IMG/VR virus record: IMGVR_UViG_2974587864_000001
From: a virus
Taxonomy: Duplodnaviria > Heunggongvirae > Uroviricota > Caudoviricetes > Straboviridae
Direction: 5' to 3' (one strand)
Length of the DNA: 64,000 bases
The translations under genes were made by a program, and so were the position numbers. The notes under the pieces are model-generated. The model ran no database searches and had not been told where the DNA came from. It saw only the letters and a list, made by a program, of their open reading frames with translations. Positions 2,071-64,000 of the stretch are shown here, piece after piece (positions within the stretch are counted from its first letter, which is position 1; every line of letters begins with the position of its first letter).

Positions 2071-2355
2071 ATGAAACTTCGTGAAAATACGGCGTATGAC
2101 TCTAAGTTAGACAGAACAATCCACACGTTCAAAGTGATTACGCCAGCGCAATTCAAAGAGCGGTACGGCATTACATTCAACGAATGGAAAGCGGGGTTGT
2201 GTAAAAACGATTACCGATATAAATTAAAATTCCGTGAATGTTATGTTGATGACGATCCTTATGCAGCAGATGTATGTGGTGAAACAGTACCAATTATCGA
2301 GAATTCGCCCGACGCACTAATCCAATCTTGTATAGACGCAGCATATGAAATTTAA
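2071..2355 (+). CDS. hypothetical protein (94 aa)
   Basis: ORF. Confidence 0.5.
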   Translation: MKLRENTAYDSKLDRTIHTFKVITPAQFKERYGITFNEWKAGLCKNDYRYKLKFRECYVDDDPYAADVCGETVPIIENSPDALIQSCIDAAYEI

Positions 2356-2366
2356 AAGAGAAAAAT

Positions 2367-2786
2367 ATGAAAGGTCTTCAAAAGCTGTTTGAATTAACCC
2401 CAAAAATTCGCGAAATCGTCGCTGCATCAACTGAAAAAGAAATCAACGGTAAATTGATGAAACTGTTTACCGAAGAAATCCCAGATTTCGATAACGAATA
2501 CCGTAAAGCGTTCGATGCGTATTCTGTTGATGGTTTCTTTGCATCACCGCAGGTGAATAGCAAACACGAATATCATCGACGATTCTTTGACTGGTCGATC
2601 GTCAATATCGTTCGTCGAACTGACATCGAACCTACAAACCATCAATTGATCTCTATGGATTCTTCTGTATTCTTTATCCAGTACCTTATCACTGGTGGAT
2701 TTAAAGCAGAAGGTATCCCGTTCTGTAACGAAGCTCTGGAAGAAGAGTTCGCAGAAGCGTATAAGTATATCAAAGCAGTTCGTTAA
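2367..2786 (+). CDS. hypothetical protein (139 aa)
   Basis: ORF with AGAGAAAAA-ATG spacing; followed by terminator. Confidence 0.55.
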   Translation: MKGLQKLFELTPKIREIVAASTEKEINGKLMKLFTEEIPDFDNEYRKAFDAYSVDGFFASPQVNSKHEYHRRFFDWSIVNIVRRTDIEPTNHQLISMDSSVFFIQYLITGGFKAEGIPFCNEALEEEFAEAYKYIKAVR

Positions 2787-2791
2787 TCAAC

Positions 2792-2816
2792 AGGCTATCT
2801 TCGGATAGCCTTTTTT
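2792..2816 (+). terminator. rho-independent terminator
   Basis: AGGCTATC-TTCG-GATAGCCT hairpin followed by TTTTTT. Confidence 0.65.
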
Positions 2817-2828
2817 CTGGAGAAGCAT

Positions 2829-3398
2829 ATGCGCTTTTTGAAATACGCAAGCTGGCTTGTACTGGTTCCCCTGGATATTCTTTCGGGTGTTCTGGCTATT
2901 CTGCTGGCTCCTTTCGTGGTTCCGTTCTATAGTGAAGAAACCGGACACTTACCTAAAGGGTTCCGTTGGATGGAAACATTCGATAACCCGATCGATGGTG
3001 ATGGTGGACATATCCGGCGTTGGGCTAACATCCGGTATCACTTAGGCGCTCTGGGTGTGTATGCGCAACGTGTAGGCTGGTTGTGGCGTAACAAGGCGTA
3101 TAACTTCGCTTATAACGTCTTAGGGCGTGAAGCACAATCAGACTTCGCCTGGAAGGGCAACCCGAAAACAGAAGGTGGTTCCGATCCATCACGTCACGGT
3201 TATCTGTTGATGTGGAATGATTCGGCATGGGGGCTTTATGTCTTCAAACCGTGGCTTAAAGTCGGAAAGGTTCAGTTCTGCTTACGCGTGTATTGCGGGT
3301 GGAAACTGAAACAGGAAGTAACTGACCCTAACGGGCTGGATCGTGCAATGCTGGCGTTCCATATCAACCCGTTGCGTTATTATGTCGTAGAAAGGTAA
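2829..3398 (+). CDS. membrane protein, unknown function (189 aa, N-terminal TM helix)
   Basis: ORF with GGAGAAG RBS; hydrophobic N-terminus [25 protein letters not shown]. Confidence 0.55.
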
Positions 3399-3402
3399 TA
3401 CA

Positions 3403-3765
3403 ATGAAAGCATATCAGATTTTAGAAGGTTTACACACTGGTACAATCTACCTGGAAGAAGGTAATGATGTTCGTGTGGTGGTATCCAAAACCCTCGAAAT
3501 GGATTCAGTGATCGGTAAAGCTCGCGTTGCTCCATTCGCAAAACGTGAAGTCGATATTGAATTTCAACCCACTGTTAAAGTGGAAGGTGGACAACACTTA
3601 AACGTAAACGTGTTGCGCCGTGAAACTCTGGAAGATGCTGTGAAGCATCCAGAAAAATACCCGCAGTTAACGATCCGTGTGTCCGGCTATGCAGTGCGTT
3701 TCAATTCACTGACTCCCGAACAACAGCGCGACGTTATCGCCCGAACCTTTACAGAGAGTCTATAA
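3403..3765 (+). CDS. grcA: autonomous glycyl radical cofactor (GrcA/YfiD-like; T4 Y06I-like)
   Basis: C-terminal ~60 aa ([61 protein letters not shown]) matches the glycyl-radical domain of E. coli GrcA/PflB C-terminus essentially residue for residue (from memory). Confidence 0.85.
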
Positions 3766-4046
3766 TGGCGATTGAAGACGTACAGGGCTATAAGCCCCAC
3801 TCGAAAGAAAAGATCGACAAAGTAAACCGCATCAAGGCCGCAGAAGTTGCCCTGGGCGAAATCTTCAAAGAACTGGATGAAGAGTATTCAAGTGATTATG
3901 CGGTATCCGATACCGATTCGTTCACTACAGAAGAACTCGATGCGATGCTTGAACGTATCCATCAAATCCAAAAGGCGAAAGACCGACTGAAAGAAGCCTC
4001 TATGTGGGCGTGTCGTGCGGTGTTCCAGCCAGAAGAAAAGTATTAA
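3765..4046 (+). CDS. hypothetical protein (93 aa)
   Basis: ORF, ATGA-type overlap with grcA-like gene. Confidence 0.5.
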   Translation: MAIEDVQGYKPHSKEKIDKVNRIKAAEVALGEIFKELDEEYSSDYAVSDTDSFTTEELDAMLERIHQIQKAKDRLKEASMWACRAVFQPEEKY

Positions 4047-4053
4047 AAATCAA

Positions 4054-4082
4054 GCCGTTGCCGAAAGGTAGCGGCTTTTTTC
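4054..4082 (+). terminator. rho-independent terminator (imperfect hairpin + T-run)
   Basis: GCCGTTGCC-GAAAG-GTAGCGGC followed by TTTTTT. Confidence 0.5.
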
Positions 4083-4117
4083 GTTTTTATGCAAAATAAT
4101 GCTTGCACTGAATCGTG

Positions 4118-4168
4118 AGTGTGGTAAAGTACACACATCGAAACGAAACAGAGAAAAGGAACGAGAAA
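4118..4168 (+). promoter_or_regulatory. promoter/leader cassette: extended -10-like TGGTAAAGT followed by conserved leader ACACACATCGAAACGAAACAGAG
   Basis: same 5' leader recurs at >=8 other gene starts in the window; TGCTT (MotA-box-like) at 4101-4105. Confidence 0.4.
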
Positions 4169-4369
4169 ATGATTAAATTAAACCCAATCGACGCAGCAAA
4201 ACATTTCGTAGTAGTTGATAATGGTGTTGTGGTTGCAGAAGTTAAGGAAATCGCTTTCTCTGACCCAGACGCGGAAATGAAAAGAATGGGCTACTCTTAC
4301 CGGATCGAGCACAAAAACGGTGAAGTAGAATACGCCGACGATATCTCTGACGTTCAGGCGAAATTCTAA
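4169..4369 (+). CDS. hypothetical protein (66 aa)
   Basis: ATG 4169 preceded by AAGGAACGAG RBS inside conserved leader; track ORF start 4115 lies inside leader and is rejected. Confidence 0.55.
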   Translation: MIKLNPIDAAKHFVVVDNGVVVAEVKEIAFSDPDAEMKRMGYSYRIEHKNGEVEYADDISDVQAKF

Positions 4370-4375
4370 AAAGTT

Positions 4376-4405
4376 GTTGACCTAATCTGGGGGCTGTGAG
4401 AATAT
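4376..4405 (+). promoter_or_regulatory. sigma70-type early promoter TTGACC-N17-GAATAT with IR GGGGCT/AGCCCC bracketing the -10
   Basis: same architecture (IR-gtga-[-10]-IR) as promoter at 138; followed by shortened leader CCATCGAAACGAAACTGAGG. Confidence 0.4.
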
Positions 4406-4437
4406 AGCCCCATCGAAACGAAACTGAGGATGACATT

Positions 4438-4728
4438 ATGAAAACTTACAACATGAAAGAACTGGTTTGCTTCAACACTCGTCGTGAAGCCCGTGCGTAT
4501 GTTCTGGCTGCTGGTAAAAATACCTCTGCTGTAATCGACCTGGGTACTGATAAAGATGTTGGCGCACGTTGGGCTGCTGTTGTGGTTATCGCTGCTCCTG
4601 TGACTCCTGTTAAAACTCTGGTTCTGGGTGCGCGTAAAGCCGAAACTCTGAAAACCAGCACTTGCAATAACAGAGGTGTTCATAATGTCACCGTCATCAA
4701 AAAACGTAGCTTTGGTTTGAGGGCTTAA
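4438..4728 (+). CDS. hypothetical protein (96 aa)
   Basis: ORF with GAGGATGACATT-ATG. Confidence 0.55.
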   Translation: MKTYNMKELVCFNTRREARAYVLAAGKNTSAVIDLGTDKDVGARWAAVVVIAAPVTPVKTLVLGARKAETLKTSTCNNRGVHNVTVIKKRSFGLRA

Positions 4729-4731
4729 CCA

Positions 4732-4962
4732 ATGAGTACCAAAGAATTAGAACAGAAAGTAATGGGGTTCATGAGTAACAGCGAAGATCGCTATGCAAAA
4801 CACCTCATTGTCGAACTGATCACCGCGTTACGTCGCCGCGACAAAGAGATCGAAGAACTTAAAAATGCATCGGTTCAGGTTGTCTATAAAGATCGCGAGC
4901 GTAGTAGCTGGGAAAAAGAATGGGATGCAAACCCCCAAGACCGCCACCTTTTCGGGAAATAA
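4732..4962 (+). CDS. hypothetical protein (76 aa)
   Basis: ORF. Confidence 0.5.
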   Translation: MSTKELEQKVMGFMSNSEDRYAKHLIVELITALRRRDKEIEELKNASVQVVYKDRERSSWEKEWDANPQDRHLFGK

Positions 4963-4964
4963 TC

Positions 4965-5192
4965 ATGAGTTCCATTAACACAGAAAAAGATTTTGTGATG
5001 TTTGTTGGGGTACAGACTGTAAAGAAAGATATCTTCGGTAAACTGTATCTGTCAAACGACGATCGCAACCCCGCATCATTCGAAACCGATGAAGATGCAT
5101 ATATCGCGAAGAACAACAGCGATAACGAAGACATTCGCCAGTATGCGCGGATCTATAACCGTGAAGTAACAACCCGTCTGGAGAGAGCATGA
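4965..5192 (+). CDS. hypothetical protein (75 aa)
   Basis: ATG 4965 right after upstream stop (track start 4920 overlaps upstream gene in another frame). Confidence 0.45.
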   Translation: MSSINTEKDFVMFVGVQTVKKDIFGKLYLSNDDRNPASFETDEDAYIAKNNSDNEDIRQYARIYNREVTTRLERA

Positions 5193-11657: not shown

Positions 11658-11677
11658 TATTTACTAAATAGTAAATA
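11658..11677. promoter_or_regulatory. 20-bp near-perfect palindrome TATTTACTAAATAGTAAATA in divergent gp27/gp28 intergenic region; candidate bidirectional late-promoter (TAAATA) element
   Basis: palindrome read directly; TAAATA-type motifs also precede gp53/gp4, gene 3, gp2 and 55554 gene. Confidence 0.35.
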
Positions 11678-12276: not shown

Positions 12277-14021
12277 TAATGGCTAGCAATCCATATTTTA
12301 ACGAAGAACAACGTCGCCGGATGCAGAATCCACCAAAACCACAGGCGCAACCGACTGTTCGTAAGATCCAGGCAACGTTAGATAAAGATTCGATGCGCGA
12401 GTTAAAGGATATCAATGATAATACCCTTGAAACCGCGCTGAATACACTGGACATCAAAGACAGTGTGAAATCCTTTGAGGATCGTTTCAAAGAGAAATTC
12501 GCTGGCTTCCAGGAACAATACGAACAGGATCAGCAACCACTTGCTGAACAGTTGCCCGATTTTGTTGGGCCAGCGCGTCCACCATCATTAACAGACAACA
12601 GCACAACCAGTGTTGATAACTCCGTCAGTGTATCGAACCAGCATAACCCATTTGCGAAAATCGAAACATACACCGGAACGATTGCAGAAGCAATCACCAA
12701 GTTTATCGAACTCGCTGAAAAGAAACCAGCCCCCGCGCCGGAACCTGAACCAGTACCGGAAGAGGAACCGGAGGTCGATCGGGACAAGAAGAAGATCCGC
12801 GATAAGGATAAAGACGAGAAGAAATTCAGCAAGAAAGTATTGTCTTTGCTGGGTGCAATCAAGGATAATACATCCGGTCTTCTGGCTCGCTTTATCGGTT
12901 ATTCTCTCGAAGCGCTGGCGAAGTTTGCAAAATGGACTCTGATTATCGGTAGTATCGTATTTGCGATCGACGTACTGAGTAAGGTTGTTCAGAAGTGGTT
13001 CCAGGATATTCTTGCAGAGGGTGAAGCCTCGAAAGATTTGTTTGGTTCATACTTCGGGAATATCAAAACCCTTGCTGAGAAAATCAACGAAGGTCTGCAA
13101 AACTTCGATATGAGTAATTTGGGCGAATCGCTGAAAAACTTATTCCTTGAACCGTTTAAGGTTCTGGGCGATACCATCAAAACCGCAATCACGGAAGGTA
13201 TCGGTAATCTGATTTACGCTCTGGGTGAATATACCGGATCTGAAACGATTACCAACGCCGGACGCGGAATGAAAGTATCAGCACTGCGCGACAAACAAAA
13301 ATACGGTCTTGAAATTGATCCCGATGATCTGATTCTGCTGAAACAGCAGGAGATCCAGGATCAGAATGATAAAGTGGTTGAGGCACGTTCTAAGGTTGTC
13401 GAACAGGTTAAGGCTACCCAGGGCGCATTCTCATATAGTTTCGGGCAGCAAACAGACGCACAGAAAGCATTGTCTAAGCAATTGGAACAGATGCGCGATC
13501 GTGTGGCTATTGAAGAAAAGATCACCGAAGAGAAGAAGAAAGAACTGAAAGCATTGCAGGAAAACCCCGCACTGTTACAGGCTGAGGTTGATAAAGAGAA
13601 TACCGCTAACCGTAAGCGCGTGGACGAAACCAAACAGATCGAAGCAGCACAAAAGGCTGAGAAGCCGAAAGCGGAAAATGATTTCGATCGTGGTGATCAG
13701 ATTCTTGATAAAGAAAATATCACCAACGAAGACAAGAAAGCAATGGAGAAAATTCTTGAATCACTTGAAGAGAAAAACAACTCCAAGAAACTTGACGAAG
13801 ACGATAGCGAACGATTCCGCTCAATGCTTGACCAGTGGCAGAACAAGATCGCCGCAGTACCGGAAAGCAGTGCAAGTATTGACAAGCAACCGGAACCTGT
13901 GAAATCACCTGTTCAGCCTACAACGCCTAACAGCGTTCAGGTCAACAACAAAACAGTAAACAACACGGTTCAGCATTCAGTACAACGAACTGACCGTAAA
14001 CCATTGATTGCATTAGCTTAA
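12273..14021 (+). CDS. 29: baseplate hub subunit / tail tube length determinant (gp29-like)
   Basis: 582 aa (T4 590 aa), long low-complexity coiled-coil regions (PAPEPEPVPEEEPE, KK/EE repeats) typical of tape-measure-like gp29; synteny. Confidence 0.55.
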   Translation: MIMASNPYFNEEQRRRMQNPPKPQAQPTVRKIQATLDKDSMRELKDINDNTLETALNTLDIKDSVKSFEDRFKEKFAGFQEQYEQDQQPLAEQLPDFVGPARPPSLTDNSTTSVDNSVSVSNQHNPFAKIETYTGTIAEAITKFIELAEKKPAPAPEPEPVPEEEPEVDRDKKKIRDKDKDEKKFSKKVLSLLGAIKDNTSGLLARFIGYSLEALAKFAKWTLIIGSIVFAIDVLSKVVQKWFQDILAEGEASKDLFGSYFGNIKTLAEKINEGLQNFDMSNLGESLKNLFLEPFKVLGDTIKTAITEGIGNLIYALGEYTGSETITNAGRGMKVSALRDKQKYGLEIDPDDLILLKQQEIQDQNDKVVEARSKVVEQVKATQGAFSYSFGQQTDAQKALSKQLEQMRDRVAIEEKITEEKKKELKALQENPALLQAEVDKENTANRKRVDETKQIEAAQKAEKPKAENDFDRGDQILDKENITNEDKKAMEKILESLEEKNNSKKLDEDDSERFRSMLDQWQNKIAAVPESSASIDKQPEPVKSPVQPTTPNSVQVNNKTVNNTVQHSVQRTDRKPLIALA

Positions 14022-48392: not shown

Positions 48393-48701
48393 TTAATCGA
48401 ATTTTTCTGGCAACTGATCTACAATTACCTGAGTTTGATGGATTTCTTCACTCAATTTATCGCGGTAATGAACCAGTTCACGGGTTCTTGATGCGGAATA
48501 GCTAATGATTTTATCAGCGGTAGCGGTGTAACCGTAACCAGCACACGCGATTTCCAGTTTTGCGTTATCGCCATTCGGTACGCGGATATGAGCATACGTC
48601 AGCAAGTTTTTAACCGCTTGTAACAGTTCATGATCTTCTTTACCGATGATAAACTGATTTGGTTCTACTGAATCAACATTCAGTTCTTCGTCTTTGTTCA
48701 T
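48393..48701 (-). CDS. hypothetical protein (102 aa)
   Basis: ORF. Confidence 0.5.
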   Translation of the reverse strand: MNKDEELNVDSVEPNQFIIGKEDHELLQAVKNLLTYAHIRVPNGDNAKLEIACAGYGYTATADKIISYSASRTRELVHYRDKLSEEIHQTQVIVDQLPEKFD

Positions 48702-55553: not shown

Positions 55554-56339
55554 ATGAAATCATTCAAAGAACTACTTTCTGAATCTGTTCAGAACAAAAA
55601 ATTTGCTAAGACCGTTGATCTGGTTGACCGTGGTAACGCTGCAAAAGGTCAGATTGGTTTCCTGCATTTTGCACATGGTGCTGATTACGATGTGTATGCG
55701 CCGGACTCCCACGATCTCGCTTACTTCGGTAAAGGTGTTGTCCGCCTGAAAGGTAAAACCACTGGCAAGACTCAGGCAGCGTATATTGACTGGGCGAAAG
55801 GTACTGTTTCATTCTACAGCGGTGATCCTGCTGATGACCTGAAATTCGACAAGCCACTGAAATTCAAAGGCGCTTCTCTGTACAAAGAAGCAGAAGAAAA
55901 CCTGGATCTGTATAATCAGTTGGCGGAAGATTTCGAAATTGATCTGCCTCTGGATGAAGCATTGGTGAAAGGAAAGGTGTACAAGCTCCCAAGTAACGAT
56001 ATGTGCTTGCTGTATACCGGACGTACCAAAACCAAAGAAACAGGTGAATACGCCGTGTTTACGGTTGTAGATGTCTCTGGTAAGCCTCGTCTGGTATCGG
56101 GTAAACGCTTTACCCAGGAATACAAAGGCGATGTTCTGTCTAAACTGGTTCTCGCTGAATCGGAAGATCTGAACGAAGCCGCTAAAGATATTCGCGAAAA
56201 AGTTATTGCGGTGTTGGTGAAACGTGGGTTTAACGAAAAAGACGCAGAAAAGATGGTTGATAAAAACCTGAAAGATGCGATGAAGGTTCGACCTGGCGCA
56301 ACCCCTGGCAAACTCGCGGAAATCGTGAGTACCCTGTAA
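55554..56339 (+). CDS. hypothetical protein (261 aa), lineage-specific insertion between genes 3 and 2
   Basis: ATG 55554 (MKSFKELL); even, host-like codon usage; strong terminator downstream; antisense track ORF 55809..56462 rejected. Confidence 0.55.
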   Translation: MKSFKELLSESVQNKKFAKTVDLVDRGNAAKGQIGFLHFAHGADYDVYAPDSHDLAYFGKGVVRLKGKTTGKTQAAYIDWAKGTVSFYSGDPADDLKFDKPLKFKGASLYKEAEENLDLYNQLAEDFEIDLPLDEALVKGKVYKLPSNDMCLLYTGRTKTKETGEYAVFTVVDVSGKPRLVSGKRFTQEYKGDVLSKLVLAESEDLNEAAKDIREKVIAVLVKRGFNEKDAEKMVDKNLKDAMKVRPGATPGKLAEIVSTL

Positions 56340-57718: not shown

Positions 57719-57761
57719 TTTAGATCCTAAATATAGTAAACATTAGATAGGGGAAATTACA

Positions 57762-58316
57762 ATGTTATTTTCGTTCTTTCCACCAGTTGATTACAAAGGC
57801 ACACCAACTACTGATATCTACCGCGATTATCGTTTTTACTTTAACCGCGTGATCAGGAATTATAAGCCGCGTACATATCAACTGACAGGTTCATTAAGAC
57901 CCGAACAATTAGCGGAAACGCTATACGGAAACCAGCAATACTACTGGGTTATCCTGATGCTTAACGATAATTACGATCCGTTTTACGGATGGATTACCGA
58001 TCAGGAAACGGCTTATCAATGCGCTATCCAGCGTTATTCAAAAGCAGGTGGCGAACAGGTTCTTTATCATATGGATGGTAAGGGCAACCGTTATTACAAT
58101 TTGGTTGAAGACCCTACGAATCCCGGTCATTGGTATGACAAAGGCGATAAGAACATGCGTTATTTGCAGTACCAGGGAACATTAGTCCCTGTAGATATTT
58201 ATGAAGATGCGGTGCTTCAAAATGAAGCAAAACGAACCATCAAGATTATTAACCCCTCTGATATTCAATCGTTTGTAAGCGATTATATCAAGGAAATGGA
58301 AAAGGCAAACCTATGA
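57762..58316 (+). CDS. 53: baseplate wedge subunit (T4 gp53 homolog)
   Basis: MLFSFFPP..YK..TDIYRDYRFYFNRV...RTYQLTGSLRPEQLAETLYGNQQYYWVILMLNDNYDPFYGWITDQETAYQ parallels T4 gp53. Confidence 0.85.
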   Translation: MLFSFFPPVDYKGTPTTDIYRDYRFYFNRVIRNYKPRTYQLTGSLRPEQLAETLYGNQQYYWVILMLNDNYDPFYGWITDQETAYQCAIQRYSKAGGEQVLYHMDGKGNRYYNLVEDPTNPGHWYDKGDKNMRYLQYQGTLVPVDIYEDAVLQNEAKRTIKIINPSDIQSFVSDYIKEMEKANL

Positions 58317-60073
58317 AATACGGTGGAAATAAATACTCCCCTTTCTTTGAGGGGGTGGTCGAAGAAGTCGATGATCCTCGTCTACTGGGGCGTGTTCAGG
58401 TGCGTGTATTCGGTGAGCATCCGGCACAGAAACAAAAATCTGAAACTATCGGTATTCCTGTTGAGGAATTACCGTGGATGATGCCTATTCAGGATATTCG
58501 CAGCGCCGCTATTTCCGGTGTTGGTTTTTCTCCGACTGGTATCACGCGCGGTAGTTTCGTTATCGGTTACTGGCGCGATAAATGGCACCAGGACGGCGTT
58601 ATACTGGGAACCTTTGCTGGTGAGTACCGAGAGAAACCGGACACCCAGAAAGGCTTCTGTGACCCGTTTGGTGAGTATCCTCGCTATGTGGGTAACGATG
58701 TTAACGTTCTGGCTCGCGGTGGCGCAGAAGGGCGCGGTTCTTCAAGCGTCATTATCCGTGATGCAAACAGTTCGTTAGCAGTCAACCCAGACGATCGCCC
58801 ACTTGACGAGATCCCAGAAGATAACCGTCCCGATACTGGCGGATTCACTATTGAAACCATGCTGAAACAGGATGAAGGTATCCGCACGAAATGGTATATT
58901 GATAGTGAGGGTTATCCGACGATCGGGATCGGGCATTTGCTTATCATGGAGAAAACCCGTGATACTGCGAAGATCAACGCCGCGATCAGTAAAGCAGTTG
59001 GTCGAGAAGTAACCAACGGGACTATCACAGCGGAAGAGGTTTCGACTCTGTTCGCGCAGGATTTAGCAAAAGTCCGACAGGGGATCAGCAACACTTCGAA
59101 CGTTCGGGAAGTGTATGTGACGTTAAACCGTCCTCGTCAAATGGCTATTGAAAATATGTGCTTCCAGATGGGTGTTGGTGGTGTTGCCAAATTTACTAAT
59201 GCTCTGGCTGCTATGAAGCGTCAGGACTGGCAAACCGCTTACAACGAACTGCGAAACTCTACATGGGCTAACCAGACGCCAGGACGTTCTTCACGCGTAT
59301 CTAAAATCGTGCTGACGGGCAACCTTGAATCATACGGTGTTCAGGTTCCAGATCCAGAAGGGCGTTCATTGAGTGCTGCTTATAATGCGGTGGTTCTGCA
59401 AGCAAGCAACCCAGAAGATCCTTTTGTTCCTGGTGATACCCGCGTAATGTTCGAGGAACCTAAATCCGCATACAATGCTGAATATCCATACAACATGGTA
59501 TTCGAATCCCGTTCTGGACACATTCAGGAATTCGACGATACACCAGGCTTTGAACGTTACAACCGTGTTCACCCAGCAGGATCATACGAAGAAATTCGTC
59601 CTGATGGAACCCGTGTCGTTAAAATCGTTGGTGATGATTATCAAATCGTCATGCAAGGCCGCAAATTAAACGTCAAGGGTAATTTACAGGTTGTCATCGA
59701 AGGTGATGCGTTCATTTACAATATGGGTAACGTTCAACAAACTGTTGATGGTAACGTGACCGAGTTCGTGCGCGGTAACGTGAATCAAACCGTTGAAGGT
59801 GAATATGTGGGGCTGATTAAAGGCAACGCAGAATTAACCGTTGAAAAAGATGCAACCGTAAACGTGAATCAGAATTTAATGGCTAACGTTAAACAGAATG
59901 CAACCGTTGCCGTAACAGAAGATGCAACAATTACCGCAAAAAATGCTCTGATTGATATTGAACAAGATTTGGATATTGGCGCACGTAATATCAACATGCG
60001 AGCATCGAATAATACTTTCATTGATTCCGGCGCACTGACTAAGATCACTGGCGGAACAGTCCAGGTAGGCTAA
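58313..60073 (+). CDS. 5: baseplate hub subunit and tail lysozyme (T4 gp5 homolog, cell-puncturing device)
   Basis: N-terminal GVVEEVDDPRLLGRVQVRVFGEH (gp5 OB domain); internal T4-lysozyme domain (DEGIRTKWYIDSEGYPTIGIGHLL...MCFQMGVGGVAKFTNALAAMKRQDWQTAYNELRNSTWANQTPGRSSRV); C-terminal beta-helix VxG repeats. Confidence 0.9.
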   Translation: MKYGGNKYSPFFEGVVEEVDDPRLLGRVQVRVFGEHPAQKQKSETIGIPVEELPWMMPIQDIRSAAISGVGFSPTGITRGSFVIGYWRDKWHQDGVILGTFAGEYREKPDTQKGFCDPFGEYPRYVGNDVNVLARGGAEGRGSSSVIIRDANSSLAVNPDDRPLDEIPEDNRPDTGGFTIETMLKQDEGIRTKWYIDSEGYPTIGIGHLLIMEKTRDTAKINAAISKAVGREVTNGTITAEEVSTLFAQDLAKVRQGISNTSNVREVYVTLNRPRQMAIENMCFQMGVGGVAKFTNALAAMKRQDWQTAYNELRNSTWANQTPGRSSRVSKIVLTGNLESYGVQVPDPEGRSLSAAYNAVVLQASNPEDPFVPGDTRVMFEEPKSAYNAEYPYNMVFESRSGHIQEFDDTPGFERYNRVHPAGSYEEIRPDGTRVVKIVGDDYQIVMQGRKLNVKGNLQVVIEGDAFIYNMGNVQQTVDGNVTEFVRGNVNQTVEGEYVGLIKGNAELTVEKDATVNVNQNLMANVKQNATVAVTEDATITAKNALIDIEQDLDIGARNINMRASNNTFIDSGALTKITGGTVQVG

Positions 60074-60075
60074 TC

Positions 60076-62163
60076 ATGATCATGGATTATGAAACCATCA
60101 TTGATGGGATTATGCAAAATTTTCAGCATCCTTGCGATGCTGAGATCCCCGCTGGATATTACAGACGCGTTATCTGGCAGGGACACACAGAAAATTACCC
60201 CGCTGTTGGGGTAGAATGGGCGACCGAAATCATCCCGATCGGAACTCACCTGTATACGAGTTCCCCTTTCGGGCAGAAAAGCGATCCGCTTCCGGTGGTG
60301 AACTCTCCAAACGTACCAACGAATCCAGACGGAACCCCAGGGGTTTCTACTGACATTTTGGTTACGAAGATTGGTTATTATTTCGCCACTCAAGCAGATA
60401 TTGATGCCTATATCACATCGATCGGGGCTACGAAGCTCGCGGGTAATGACTGGTACGGGGCTGATCTGTCAAAAGCAAACTTGTTCAAGAACCCTGGCGA
60501 ACTCGCGATGTACAAGGTGGAAAACTCCGGTGGTTACTTGCTGACTTCCGGTCCCCGTTGCGATCCGCGAATCCGACAGGTATACAACCAGACTACAGGC
60601 GCGTTTACCAGCATTGATTATTACTGGAATGGCAACCGTATTGCGTACATGAAACACGACGAATCCCCCGCGCACCAGTGCAAATATACAGGGATGTCAG
60701 TAAACACGAACGCAGATACCAGCATTCCTCCGGTTCCTCCTGCTCTCCCGTCAACGTATGGGGCGCTACCGAGTGAAGCCAGATTGTTTTCTGCTCGCTC
60801 TGGATTGGGCTGTATTCCGGCGACCGTAGGGTTCCCGTATACGAATATCAGCGATGCTATGCTTTCCGCGTGGAACGAGACTCGTAAAACGTTCAAGCTG
60901 GCTTTCGATATGCTGACGGGTACAATTAAAAATGGCTCTGGTATCGCGACGATGTTTGACGGGCTTTCGATCGGGATGGAAGAAATCACAGCGGGTGCTC
61001 TGGCATTGTCACAACAAGCATGGCAAACCGCAATGAAGGTATTCCGGCAGATCATTAGCTCTGCGTTTAACATCGTGGGTGGGGCATGGAGTCTGATCAA
61101 TAACTTCCTCCCGACTGTTGCGATCCTGGGTGTTGCAATCAACATTTACGATCTGGTGTTTGGTGATAGTTCGGTTCAATCCCTGAAAGATTCTTTCCAG
61201 GCTCTGATTGACTCCGGCGCACAGACGTATGAAAGCGTCATAAACGCAATCTACGGGGCTATAGGCAGTTCTTACAATTATACCGTTGAATACGTCAAGG
61301 CTGGCGCTCGCGACCTTGTAGACGCTTGTAGCGCGTTATTTGACTGGTGTTTGACTATGTTCCAAAACGGTTGCGTTGCTCTGGTGGATTTGTACGGGCG
61401 TATGATGCAGATCTGGTCAATGCCTCCCGAAACACCAAACCCGCTTTGGTCTGCGGTGCTGGCTATCCGTAACATCATGCGACAGATTAAACCTCTTGAT
61501 GTGATTCTGGGCGGTAACTTCCCAGGGTTTACAGCAATGGATCTGTATCAGCAAGCGCAAGCGAAAGTGAAAGCGTTCATTGATGCATCCTATGCGCAGA
61601 TCTCCGCACTGTATGATCAGGGGCAAGAACTATTCAACACCCTGAAAGCACAGACACAGGAAAGGGATTCGATTAAACGCAAGTTCGATCAGTACCTAAA
61701 CTGGATGTGGGAACCTGTAACGGAAGCAACAACCGCTGCTTATCAGGCTGCACTTGATGCCGCTAACGCTGCTGTGAATGCGACTAAGGCCGCATATGAG
61801 GGAATCAAAGCACAGATTGCTACTCTGCAAGATGGGATGAAAGACACCTACAGCATGGCAATGACTGAACTCAAAAAACTGCCTGTAATGGCTCAGATTA
61901 ACCAGTTCTTAGGTTACTGTGGGGTTGCATTCGATGACCTGTTAAAAACGTATGAGAACGCGCTGACGGGCGCACAATCGCTATATAAAAACTTTGTTGA
62001 TAGTTCCCGCTCGTTTAAGGACACATGCAAGGTGATTTATAACCAGATTTGTACGCTTGCTCTAAGTAAGGTAACTCAATACGTAAACAAATTACTGTCA
62101 TTAATCGGACTCGCGATCACATTCGGTTCAATTAGTGTTTGCGTCCCTATGGTTCAATACTAA
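60076..62163 (+). CDS. large hypothetical protein (695 aa) with hydrophobic segments, inserted between gp5 and gp6
   Basis: ORF in same operon (4-nt gap after gp5); hydrophobic stretches AWSLINNFLPTVAILGVAINIYDLVF and LSLIGLAITFGSISVCVPMV; no T4 counterpart of this size at this position. Confidence 0.55.
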   Translation: MIMDYETIIDGIMQNFQHPCDAEIPAGYYRRVIWQGHTENYPAVGVEWATEIIPIGTHLYTSSPFGQKSDPLPVVNSPNVPTNPDGTPGVSTDILVTKIGYYFATQADIDAYITSIGATKLAGNDWYGADLSKANLFKNPGELAMYKVENSGGYLLTSGPRCDPRIRQVYNQTTGAFTSIDYYWNGNRIAYMKHDESPAHQCKYTGMSVNTNADTSIPPVPPALPSTYGALPSEARLFSARSGLGCIPATVGFPYTNISDAMLSAWNETRKTFKLAFDMLTGTIKNGSGIATMFDGLSIGMEEITAGALALSQQAWQTAMKVFRQIISSAFNIVGGAWSLINNFLPTVAILGVAINIYDLVFGDSSVQSLKDSFQALIDSGAQTYESVINAIYGAIGSSYNYTVEYVKAGARDLVDACSALFDWCLTMFQNGCVALVDLYGRMMQIWSMPPETPNPLWSAVLAIRNIMRQIKPLDVILGGNFPGFTAMDLYQQAQAKVKAFIDASYAQISALYDQGQELFNTLKAQTQERDSIKRKFDQYLNWMWEPVTEATTAAYQAALDAANAAVNATKAAYEGIKAQIATLQDGMKDTYSMAMTELKKLPVMAQINQFLGYCGVAFDDLLKTYENALTGAQSLYKNFVDSSRSFKDTCKVIYNQICTLALSKVTQYVNKLLSLIGLAITFGSISVCVPMVQY

Positions 62164-62186
62164 ATACCCGATAACGAGGGGTAATA

Positions 62187-64000
62187 ATGGCTACTACAAA
62201 GAAACAAATTAATCAGATCCCCGATATCTTTGTCGGGGCTACTTTTGACGAAATCAAATCTGACTTAATCAACTGGCTCCGAGGTCAGGACGAATTCAAG
62301 GATTATGATTTCTCCGGCTCGCGCATGAACGTACTTGTGGATCTGTTATCATACTGTACACTGTACATTCAGCAAATGAGTAACACCGCACTGTTCGAAT
62401 CGTTTATTCGTACCGCTGCATTGCGTAGTTCTGTTGTCCAACAGGCTCAGGATTTGGGCTATATGCCGGACTCCCGCACCGCTGCAAATACTGCGATCCT
62501 GATCACTGCGAAAAACCCACTGAACCCAACATCGATCCGTATTCCACGCGGTACGAAATTCATCGGTACAGTGAAAGAAACAAACAGTTTCCCGTTCGTC
62601 GTATCCGATGACGTGGTGATCGTTCGTGACAAAGACAATAACTATGTTTCGATGTTGAACATCGTTCAGGGGCGTTTAGTCCGTACCGAAGTCATCTTTG
62701 ATGGTTCGACTATCCTGATCCGCGATCCAAACATCGACCGTAGCCAGGTTCGTGTTACCGTCAACGGCGCACAATGGGATGACTGGACAAACGAAAGTAT
62801 CGTAAATGCAACGGGCGCATCAACTGTTTTCTATATGCGTGAAACTGTTGATGGACATACCGAAGTTTACTTTGGTGAAGGTGAAACCAGCCAACAGGTC
62901 GCGGGTGGTGCTCTGACTGCTGATTACATCGGGGGCTTGAAACCTGCAAACGGTTCAACCGTTGTTATTGAATATATTTCAACCAACGGCGAAGAAGCAA
63001 ACGGTGCTGAAAACTTTGTTTACGTGGATACGTTGACAAACATTAGCATTACGAGTATTGTTGAGAACCCGACTAATTCAGCGGACTATGTAGGCGCTGA
63101 TGGTGGTGGTGAACCGGAAGATATCGAACGTATTCGCGAACTCGCGCCTATCATGCGTGAGACACAGCGCCGTTGTGTTACTGCATCGGATTATGAATCG
63201 TTCTTGTCTCACCGCTTCGGTTCTGTTATTCAGGCGGTTCAGTGCTTTACTGATAAAGAAAAACCTGGCTATGCGTTCATCGCGGTTAAACCGAAATCAG
63301 GGTTGCGCTTGACCTCTGTTCAAAAAGAGGACATGCAAAACTATCTGGCGAAGTATAACCTTGCGACTATTACGCCGTCGATCCTTGACCCGAACTATCT
63401 GTATATCGTACAAAGCATCAAAGTAACGTATGATATCAGTAAGTTGGTTGAATCAGAGGAATGGTTGCGTGGTCAAGTAATCAACGAGGTTGACAGATAT
63501 TATACTGATAACGTTGAAATTTTCAACAAATCATTCAGTAAGTCCAAAATGTTAACCTATGTTGATAACGCGGACGTGTCGATTATTGGTTCTTCTGCGA
63601 CTATTCAGCTATTGCGTGAACTTGATAACTATTACAGCGCTCCGATGTCTGGTATTCACTTCTTAAACCAGGTGAAATCACGTTCTGTTGTTTCGAACGG
63701 GTTCAAATACACAAACGCTGCTGGTGATTCGTATGATGTGCGTTATGCATCAACCGATATGAACACTACAACCGGACGTGCAAAAATTGTTATCGGGCCA
63801 TTCAAAAACGGTGATATCAGTATCGCAGCCTATACAGGAACCGATTTTGATAAATATCCTGGAGTGACCGATCGTAATAAATATTACGAAGTCGGATATG
63901 TGGAACACTACACCGATTTCATTAGTTTCGATCTGGGTGTCCTGAACGTTCCATCCGAGCGATTCAGCGCTGCTTATATCGAACTGACTGGTACACCATT
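62187..64000 (+). CDS. 6: baseplate wedge subunit (T4 gp6 homolog), 5' 1.8 kb; continues beyond window
   Basis: N-terminus IPDIFVGATFDEIKSDLINWLRGQDEFKDYDFSGSRMNVLVDLLSYCTLYIQQ..NTALFESFIRTAALRSSVVQQAQDLGYMP parallels T4 gp6 IPEIFVGGTFAEIKQNLIEWLNGQNEFLDYDFEGSRLNVLCDLLAYNTLYIQQ. Confidence 0.85.
   Translation, partial: MATTKKQINQIPDIFVGATFDEIKSDLINWLRGQDEFKDYDFSGSRMNVLVDLLSYCTLYIQQMSNTALFESFIRTAALRSSVVQQAQDLGYMPDSRTAANTAILITAKNPLNPTSIRIPRGTKFIGTVKETNSFPFVVSDDVVIVRDKDNNYVSMLNIVQGRLVRTEVIFDGSTILIRDPNIDRSQVRVTVNGAQWDDWTNESIVNATGASTVFYMRETVDGHTEVYFGEGETSQQVAGGALTADYIGGLKPANGSTVVIEYISTNGEEANGAENFVYVDTLTNISITSIVENPTNSADYVGADGGGEPEDIERIRELAPIMRETQRRCVTASDYESFLSHRFGSVIQAVQCFTDKEKPGYAFIAVKPKSGLRLTSVQKEDMQNYLAKYNLATITPSILDPNYLYIVQSIKVTYDISKLVESEEWLRGQVINEVDRYYTDNVEIFNKSFSKSKMLTYVDNADVSIIGSSATIQLLRELDNYYSAPMSGIHFLNQVKSRSVVSNGFKYTNAAGDSYDVRYASTDMNTTTGRAKIVIGPFKNGDISIAAYTGTDFDKYPGVTDRNKYYEVGYVEHYTDFISFDLGVLNVPSERFSAAYIELTGTP

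Follow-up and report, generated by a model that had tools for sequence, protein, structure and literature searches.

A 695-residue protein encoded next to the gp5 spike gene of Cronobacter phage vB_CsaM_leE is a probable non-PAAR tip of the T4-type needle

The current view of contractile injection systems, among them phage tails, tailocins and the type VI secretion system (T6SS), is that they terminate in either a small PAAR-like cone or a fused apex domain. In phage T4 the apex is formed by the PAAR-type protein gp5.4, of approximately 97 amino acids (aa), a PAAR-repeat spike tip (PDB 4KU0), and PAAR proteins reportedly form the spike tip of the T6SS, as Shneider and colleagues are said to have described in 2013. 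The T6SS also uses specialised effectors borne on VgrG/PAAR, including PAAR-toxin fusions and prePAAR/transmembrane effectors such as Tse6. Here we consider a gene that lies in the genomic slot of gp5.4 in a stretch of 64,000 nucleotides (nt), hereafter the window, from the Straboviridae record IMGVR_UViG_2974587864_000001. At 100% identity, the window matches Cronobacter phage vB_CsaM_leE (leE; NC_048646; Straboviridae, Pseudotevenvirus), position 48465 of NC_048646 being window position 1, and the gene, an open reading frame (ORF) encoding 695 aa, is located between those of the spike protein gp5 and the baseplate wedge subunit gp6. We consider it likely that its product belongs to the virion and takes over, at the end of the gp5 needle, the capping role of PAAR/gp5.4.

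A tip role for this protein family was already proposed in 2025, for phage RB43, but not demonstrated, and the present analysis corroborates and extends that proposal. The RB43 protein orf205w was called a “putative spike tip protein” by Mattenberger, Leiman, Belin et al. (bioRxiv 2025, doi 10.1101/2025.08.28.672839; PMC12407873). According to the preprint, a gene 5.4 ortholog is absent from RB43, RB16 and Lw1, and the RB43 locus equivalent to T4 5.1–5.4 is occupied by orf205w, a protein of ~690 residues of which 1–220 are mixed α/β and the rest α-helical (PMC12407873). At the low resolution of a 17.7 Å, C6-symmetrised map, the RB43 baseplate is like that of T4 except for a larger spike tip, into which a low-confidence AlphaFold model of orf205w “can fit” (PMC12407873). 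The sole earlier mention of orf205w that we found in the literature is a 2006 table of weak Pfam matches. To this we add a cassette swap within the genus of T4, with mapped boundaries; a near 1:1 co-occurrence of the gene with a gp5 end motif that includes a distant metagenomic lineage; two further complete genomes that lack PAAR; a structural model of good confidence; fold and family searches that came back negative; and the refutation of tape-measure and SbcC annotations. The portions of the preprint available to us report neither an SG1-type cassette swap nor co-occurrence statistics (PMC12407873).

The sequence-only reading of the window had described a single 695-aa ORF between gp5 and gp6, where T4 carries small ORFs, and this arrangement is borne out: 2 nt separate the TAA of gp5 from the ATG of the ORF, its stop codon ends 23 nt before the gp6 ATG, and the corresponding T4 interval contains 5.1, segC, 5.3 and 5.4. 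A second in-frame ATG at 60082 (Met3), 6 nt downstream of the first, aligns with the family consensus start MNY/MDY, so that translation may in truth begin there. The protein matches phrog_5296 (“unknown function”) with E = 0, residues 3–695 aligning to profile positions 1–685 of 685, and is 81% identical to RB43 orf205w over 100% of its length, the two genes sharing both locus and genus. By tblastn, 217 phage records carry the gene, with identities of ~80% to homologs in RB43, Lw1, Miller and KP15/Slopekvirus and of 41–46% to those in Dhakavirus (Bp7), Bragavirus (Pm5461), Cronobacter phage S13, Providencia PSTCR6 and Salmonella SG1/KM16; the hosts of the carrier phages are Klebsiella, Escherichia, Enterobacter, Cronobacter, Citrobacter, Proteus, Salmonella and Shigella. 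A wider protein database yields 52 full-length homolog clusters, all of 580–717 aa and 35–99% identical, and given these full-length homologs the gene can be taken as real, far beyond chance. A Pfam scan of the whole protein returned no family above the cut-off and no toxin or enzyme domain.

The gene of T4 gp5.4 is itself widespread, being detectable by tblastn in 1,422 phage records that reach out to phages of Vibrio, Aeromonas, Acinetobacter, Campylobacter and Rhizobium. No tblastn match to it was found in the complete leE genome, comprising the window and the remaining genome pieces. A hidden Markov model (HMM) built from five diverse gp5.4 proteins was also searched against all six-frame ORFs; the best E value in the complete leE genome was 1.2 (controls 1e-55 and 2e-43), with none at the 695-aa locus in any frame, and the best in the whole record of Salmonella phage SG1 was 0.66 (T4 control 7e-56). 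Across the three genomes checked in full (T4, leE and SG1), gp5.4 and the 695-aa gene are mutually exclusive. The 695-aa protein is not a PAAR protein in another guise, as the PAAR Pfam domain matches neither its sequence nor the N-terminal domains of 24 family members, and the small conical β-structure of PAAR (~90–100 aa) is not its fold; the PAAR-like N-terminus that the sequence-only reading had suggested looking for was found neither by sequence HMM nor by fold. HWB01_gp020, a 93-aa “tail protein” (NC_048646 11397–11678, outside the window), was considered as a relocated gp5.4 and rejected: it is a LysM domain (Pfam 2e-10), and its RB43 counterpart ORF020c was noted as LysM in 2006.

The position of the gene follows gp5. 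A gap of 0–2 nt is all that separates the large gene from the preceding gp5 stop in Pseudotevenvirus, Slopekvirus, Dhakavirus, Bragavirus, Tequatrovirus, S13 and a metagenome, the phages checked being leE, RB43, KP15, SG1, Bp7, Pm5461 and S13, together with the metagenomic locus L018. In Cronobacter phage S13 the downstream place is not taken by gp6, and the large gene is still directly after gp5, while the metagenomic relative at L018 (P0053, 764 aa) has a gp25-like right neighbour and, on its left, a β-helix fragment ending in ...FTGGTVSVG. The gp6 gene is the right-hand neighbour of the large gene and not its conserved partner. Comparison of gp5–gp6 intervals across related phages, which had been put forward as a check on the sequence-only reading, gives a gene that is constant after gp5 and that swaps with the gp5.4 region.

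This constancy extends into gp5 itself. Twelve gp5 proteins were aligned, seven from carriers of the large gene and five from phages of the gp5.4 type. The N-terminal 390 residues are 42–68% identical between the two groups; the tip, comprising the last ~60–85 residues, is 14–27% identical between the groups as against 33–91% among carriers. Every one of the seven sampled carrier gp5s ends in ...K(I/V)(T/S)G(G/A)(T/N)VQVG and none of the five gp5.4-type proteins has the TGG(T/N)V(Q/S)VG ending; four of these five, all except that of Acinetobacter phage Melin, end instead in ...DGSRI(D/N)(I/L)G. The carrier tips are longer by one strand, or ~8 residues.

The sharpest view of this association comes from SG1 (NC_054936), assigned to Tequatrovirus, the genus of T4 itself. 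Its gp5 is 99% identical to that of T4 over residues 1–390 (62% to the carrier Bp7) and 94% over residues 391–515 (68% to Bp7), and from residue 516 to the end the relationship is reversed, with 27% identity to T4 and 91% to Bp7. At the DNA level, 97.4% identity between SG1 and T4 stops at gp5 codon ~502 and returns, at 95.3%, from 10 nt ahead of the gp6 start codon, the swapped interval covering 2234–4528 of the SG1 stretch (L017) and 3467–5071 of the T4 stretch (L005). Because identity to T4 breaks within gp5 and resumes before gp6, one cassette has replaced another: the incoming cassette consists of the last ~88 residues of gp5 and the large gene, and the outgoing one of the T4 gp5 end and 5.1-segC-5.3-5.4. 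The SG1 cassette is fixed at an identity of at least 99.5% in ~7 phages of the T4 genus, and at megablast sensitivity no close donor was found outside its own sub-lineage. The homing endonuclease gene segC lies on the T4 side of the swap and may help to explain the interval as a recombination hot spot.

The same pairing is seen across the databases. A 45-aa query from the leE gp5 tip, which is too short for the divergent Proteus-type tips, retrieves 206 records; the large gene is present in 217, and the taxon profiles of the two sets are nearly identical: by the first word of the organism name there are 113 records with the tip and 114 with the large gene for Klebsiella, 27 and 27 for Escherichia, 20 and 20 for Enterobacter, 18 and 18 for Cronobacter, and 12 and 13 for Citrobacter. 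The needle end and the large gene behave as a single co-adapted module, which is what a direct physical partnership predicts. Attachment of the 695-aa protein to the spike, suggested by the sequence-only reading from the position of the gene, is well supported, if indirectly, by the adjacency to gp5, the tip cassette, the ~1:1 co-occurrence, the lack of gp5.4 and the enlarged RB43 tip (PMC12407873).

An AlphaFold2 model of the full-length protein, made from a 39-sequence family alignment (A1), has a pLDDT of 87.1, a pTM of 0.77 and an elongated shape, in which an N-terminal α/β domain is joined by a less confident linker (residues 276–299) to a bundle of long helices (Table 1). Within the N-terminal domain C20, R30–R31, W48, the WYGADLSK motif at 126–133, E149–N150 and C202 are invariant. 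Foldseek against predicted viral structures recovered the protein's own family only, a profile search of PDB sequences gave nothing significant (the best being Hbl-B, at E 0.012), and a Pfam scan of the N-terminal domain in 24 family members gave no match. When the N-terminal domain was searched as a profile against 1.84 billion proteins, only 12 representatives were found, every full-length one having 668–764 aa and the same architecture; a modular adaptor with variable cargo is ruled out, as the domain was never found with a different C-terminal module. The predicted N-terminal fold appears not to be represented in the PDB, and to be neither PAAR-like nor a reusable adaptor. P0058, considered as a relative of the N-terminal domain from outside the family (E 3e-8, six stretches), is a repetitive Cys/His-rich ORF of 480 aa with a recurring “WHTEIIDIR” unit, and almost certainly arises from a tandem repeat, spuriously translated, that matches the W-x-TEII motif of the family.

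The long Ala/Gln-rich segment that the sequence-only reading had described as coiled is present (residues 481–640, with 16.9% Ala and 9.4% Gln) and is modelled as long helices packed in the bundle, not as a free coiled coil. The hydrophobic helices of that reading fared less evenly: two hydrophobic segments exist, internal and C-terminal, of which the internal one is modelled as a β-hairpin, and the extreme C-terminus as a strand (E686–694). The internal motif FLPxhTIxGhxIDI is conserved, and in distant members its Kyte-Doolittle (KD) hydropathy is only 0.9–1.9, with an alternation of polar and apolar residues; judged by these features, it would not pass for a classical transmembrane helix. 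All family members keep a hydrophobic C-terminal segment (KD 1.2–2.2), and the block just before it, residues 651–675, is the most conserved of the protein (conservation 0.83), with further peaks at WYGADLSK 126–133, residues 326–350 and residues 401–500. The conserved hydrophobic C-terminus and the hairpin might serve membrane insertion, or simply form a hydrophobic interface with gp5; the second possibility is suggested by the T4 gp5–gp5.4 interface, which is hydrophobic (PMC12407873).

Two further features of the family are recorded here. Cys20 (60133–60135) and Cys202 (60679–60681) are invariant across the 39 family members, and Cys246 (60811–60813) and Cys689 (62140–62142) nearly so; these conserved cysteines could form a disulfide or a metal site, which is of interest since PAAR and P2-type tips bind metal ions. 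Dhakavirus-like members (JS98/Bp7; P0019–P0028) have an extra hydrophobic Ala/Val run, ...IAVAVAVAALP..., at residues ~215–235 (KD up to 2.5), placed between the core of the N-terminal domain and the bundle and absent from leE and the RB43/KP15 group.

In the arrangement that we favour, the 695-aa protein would be produced late, on the same transcript as gp53 and gp5, and would cap the blunt C-terminal end of the gp5 β-helix needle as a functional replacement for the PAAR-type gp5.4 of T4. Docking would take place on the co-evolved gp5 end, with its extra β-strand and its characteristic terminal motif, and the needle would be extended by the novel N-terminal α/β domain and by a five-helix bundle ~8 nm long. 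On contraction of the sheath the protein would be the first phage component to enter and cross the outer membrane, and would then be shed with the spike into the periplasm. Direct binding to gp5 is inferred, as are the copy number or stoichiometry, the docking end and orientation, and any activity after penetration.

Several points weigh against a tip assignment. A tip of 76 kDa is counter-intuitive for a “sharpening” function, and a dedicated folding chaperone would likewise give co-inheritance with the gp5 tip. The extra density of RB43, at 17.7 Å and with imposed C6 symmetry, is not assignable to one specific protein, the orf205w protein could not be produced in complex with a gp5 β-helix fragment, and the preprint authors themselves grade the assignment “possible” (PMC12407873). 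Virion proteomics for a carrier phage was not found in the literature, and the protein has not been directly identified in any virion: in the one related dataset, that of Morganella phage MP1, the proteins detected include neither gp5 nor those encoded beside it, mass spectrometry forms no part of the KP15/KP27 and phiEap-3 papers, and the Jiaodavirus dataset concerns gp5.4-type phages.

It is possible, if doubtful, that capping the needle is a prelude and that the main job of the protein, delivered by the spike, is insertion into the host membrane after penetration; such a role extends the tip reading and is not exclusive of it. In the manner of ClyA-family toxins, of translocators of the type III secretion system (T3SS) or of the membrane segments of tape measures, the hairpin and the C-terminus would swing out of the bundle and anchor the tail or help to form a conduit for DNA. 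Hydrophobicity profiles are what suggest a membrane-active role, through the two segments listed in Table 1 and the family-wide conservation of the C-terminal one, and a long helical bundle bearing a hydrophobic β-hairpin, as modelled, recalls the general design of ClyA-type α-pore-formers; central regions of several tape-measure PHROGs also show weak profile similarity to the protein (E 8e-10 to 4e-3). A pore-forming fold, which the sequence-only reading had proposed to look for, did not emerge, as similarity to the ClyA-type fold, a helical tail with a head that bears a β-tongue, did not rise above that of generic helical bundles. Moreover, the internal segment is weakly hydrophobic in distant members (KD 0.9–1.4) and alternates polar with apolar residues, the hydrophobic elements may be a docking surface like that between T4 gp5 and gp5.4, and the localisation of the P2 spike suggests that the spike stops in the periplasm and leaves the inner membrane unpierced (PMC12407873). 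Rather unlikely, in our estimation, is the more specific picture of a needle-borne translocon, in which one helical-bundle protein of 76 kDa, held on the spike by a fold not seen elsewhere, would after outer-membrane passage unfurl its hairpin and C-terminus into the host membrane and so anchor the tail or seed a DNA channel. If true, this would make the protein a phage analogue of the tip translocators of the T3SS or of ClyA-type pore-formers; natural phages would be exchanging it, in place of PAAR, as a cassette with a matching needle end.

The sequence-only reading had also allowed for a determinant of host range. The tip might adapt the needle to particular outer-membrane or lipopolysaccharide (LPS) types, or evade exclusion systems that block injection, and we regard this as an improbable account of the gene. 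T4 gp5.4 is required specifically on deep-rough LPS hosts, which shows that the identity of the tip can matter for the envelope (PMC12407873), and the exchange of the cassette between near-identical phages (SG1 and T4), with its fixation in ~7 of them, suggests selection on the tip. Set against this, phages of the gp5.4 type infect the same genera as carriers, with no obvious host correlation, and no receptor-binding-like domain was detected by Pfam and fold searches.

To the proposal that the protein never enters the virion and is a chaperone that folds or trimerises the variant gp5 β-helix end, the enlarged RB43 tip being another protein or a longer gp5 helix, we would give little credence. 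Known phage fibre and spike chaperones such as gp57A and gp38 are small; the 695-aa protein, with its 76 kDa, two well-ordered domains and strong conservation over the full length, does not resemble them, and we know of no dedicated chaperone that T4 gp5 needs for its β-helix. The needle end would, moreover, stay uncapped, since PAAR is absent. A chaperone does predict the co-inheritance and the co-occurrence with the gp5 tip equally well, and it would suit a tip that is one strand longer, the literature without proteomic detection in virions, and the co-expression with a gp5 fragment that yielded no stable complex; eight extra residues per chain are, however, too few to explain so clear an enlargement of the tip density (PMC12407873).

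The reading as a second tape measure of the tail, or as a protein of its lumen, is that of several GenBank entries, and PHROG tape-measure families do match residues ~255–660 (with the E values given above). It is hardly credible and effectively refuted, for leE keeps a canonical gp29 ortholog (580 aa, window 12279–14021) in the gp27-gp28-gp29-gp48-gp54 hub cluster, SG1 likewise retains gp29, the 695-aa protein has no similarity to leE gp29 (BLASTP E 0.86), the PHROG matches are restricted to the helical part, far weaker than the match to its own family and compatible with compositional or helical resemblance, a globular N-terminal domain is atypical of tape measures, and gp5.4, not gp29, is what the large gene is exchanged for.

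Annotations of the gene family in GenBank disagree, “hypothetical protein” being the commonest. The label “tail length tape measure protein” is found in phi1_146010, phi1_146002, Roth23 and Roth41, “baseplate hub structural protein” in HK6, EBPL and vB_EkoM5VN, and “SbcC-like subunit of palindrome specific endonuclease” in phi1_146015; the tape-measure and SbcC labels look like propagated weak profile matches to the helical part. Some records also depart from the usual length of the gene. The homolog of Escherichia phage phT4A (NC_055712, 101438–102907) is without the first ~200 residues and gives a 485-aa product, and the copies in Cronuts (MW021751) and CPRSB (OM971649) are fragmented into two and six pieces, respectively; these anomalies are probably frameshift, sequencing or annotation errors, not real truncations.

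The neighbourhood of the gene is in keeping with expression together with gp5, which is 48.6% identical to its T4 counterpart and whose start is overlapped by 4 nt by the 3′ end of the gp53 gene. The motif CTAAATA occurs in the window at 11664, 54143 (minus strand), 55306 (minus strand), 57727 and 62160, and all five sites lie just upstream of virion genes (gp28, gp57A, gp3, gp53 and gp6) in the correct orientation; the count is not enriched (five observed against 7.3 expected), and the promoter assignment rests on placement only. The exact T4 late promoter TATAAATA is absent from the plus strand near the operon, its three occurrences in the window all being on the minus strand, and the late promoters of this phage group may have a variant core. 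Between gp5 and the 695-aa ORF there is no CTAAATA and no convincing terminator was found. The co-transcription with gp5 that the sequence-only reading had assumed is weakly supported by the CTAAATA before gp53, by its lack between gp5 and the ORF and by the 2-nt gap, all of which are consistent with a late gp53-gp5-ORF transcript.

Table 1. Features of the gp53–gp6 region of the window and of the 695-aa protein (window coordinates)
Feature	Position	Strand	Description
CTAAATA motif	57727..57733	+	29 nt before the ATG of gp53; candidate core of a late promoter for a gp53-gp5-ORF transcript
gp53 baseplate wedge subunit	57762..58316	+	First gene of the operon; Pfam Phage_gp53 4.6e-63; phrog_232
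gp5 spike	58313..60073	+	586 aa; OB domain, lysozyme and C-terminal triple β-helix; Pfam Gp5_OB 7e-62, Phage_lysozyme 2e-12, Gp5_C repeats
gp5 C-terminal β-helix tip	59831..60073 (start approximate)	+	Residues ~507–586, ending ...ALTKITGGTVQVG; co-inherited with the large gene; presumed docking platform
695-aa ORF	60076..62163	+	ATG start; HWB01_gp200 in NC_048646; RB43 orf205w ortholog; phrog_5296; putative non-PAAR spike-tip protein
N-terminal α/β domain	60076..60900	+	Residues 1–~275; confident core ~15–210 (predicted)
Helical bundle	60973..62100	+	Residues ~300–675; long helices 300–334, 410–447, 487–541, 550–589 and 643–675 (predicted)
Internal hydrophobic segment	61105..61161	+	Residues 344–362, FLPTVAILGVAINIYDLVF; KD 1.88; modelled as β-hairpin, strands E348–350 and E353–355
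C-terminal hydrophobic segment	62080..62148	+	Residues 669–691, LLSLIGLAITFGSISVCVP; KD 2.04 at 673–691
CTAAATA motif	62160..62166	+	Overlaps the stop of the 695-aa ORF, 21 nt before the ATG of gp6; gp6 may have its own late promoter here
gp6 baseplate wedge subunit	62187..64000	+	Five Gp6 Pfam domains; runs past the window end

Elsewhere in the window, HWB01_gp195 (55554–56339, plus strand; mechanical ORF start 55497) encodes a “hypothetical protein” of ~260 aa and stands alone on the plus strand inside the structural block, between gene 3 (tail tube terminator) and gene 2 (DNA end protector).

If the tip assignment is correct, ~210 records of T4-like phages, many of them candidates for therapy, use a quite different component on the same needle. 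SG1 and T4 form a natural, nearly isogenic pair that differs essentially in the cassette of needle end and tip gene, so that the role of the tip becomes directly testable in terms of outer-membrane penetration, LPS dependence, resistance to exclusion and activity at the inner membrane. Their comparison also sets the boundaries needed for engineered tip swaps, and misleading labels (“tape measure”, “SbcC-like” and “baseplate hub”) are corrected for ~200 phage genes.

Among described systems the nearest relative is RB43 orf205w itself, which is orthologous and of the same family, and whose domain layout as given in the preprint is matched by that of the leE protein; the RB43 model is of low confidence, in contrast to a pLDDT of 87 and a pTM of 0.77 for leE (PMC12407873). 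T4 gp5.4 and other PAAR tips share with the 695-aa protein the genomic slot, after the spike gene and before gp6, and the presumed position on the blunt end of gp5. The likeness to T6SS effectors borne on VgrG/PAAR, which the sequence-only reading had drawn, is that of a large protein with hydrophobic segments that would ride at the tip of a contractile-injection spike; the leE protein differs in being without an adaptor (PAAR, DUF4150, MIX and the like) and without a toxin or enzyme domain, and in being encoded in a virion operon of a lytic phage. The analogy does not carry over, in that there is no PAAR to ride on, no toxin domain, and an N-terminal domain never found with other cargo; because no PAAR is present, the protein would replace PAAR rather than be carried by it. 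With tape measures (T4 gp29 and the tape measure proteins of siphophages) it has in common long helical stretches rich in Ala, Gly and Ile, with hydrophobic segments, and weak PHROG matches, and it differs from them in its locus, its globular N-terminal domain and its lack of homology to leE gp29. Pore-formers of the ClyA family (ClyA, Hbl-B, AhlC and Cry6Aa) and T3SS translocators such as IpaB were compared as well, and the fold specific to ClyA was not found. The defining features that were tested for PAAR proteins (sequence and fold), ClyA-type toxins and T6SS cargo effectors are lacking in the 695-aa protein, as are the gp29 homology and the hub-cluster locus of tape measures, and the place that is well supported for it, if indirectly, is a functional one among the spike tip proteins of contractile injection systems, as a non-PAAR variant.

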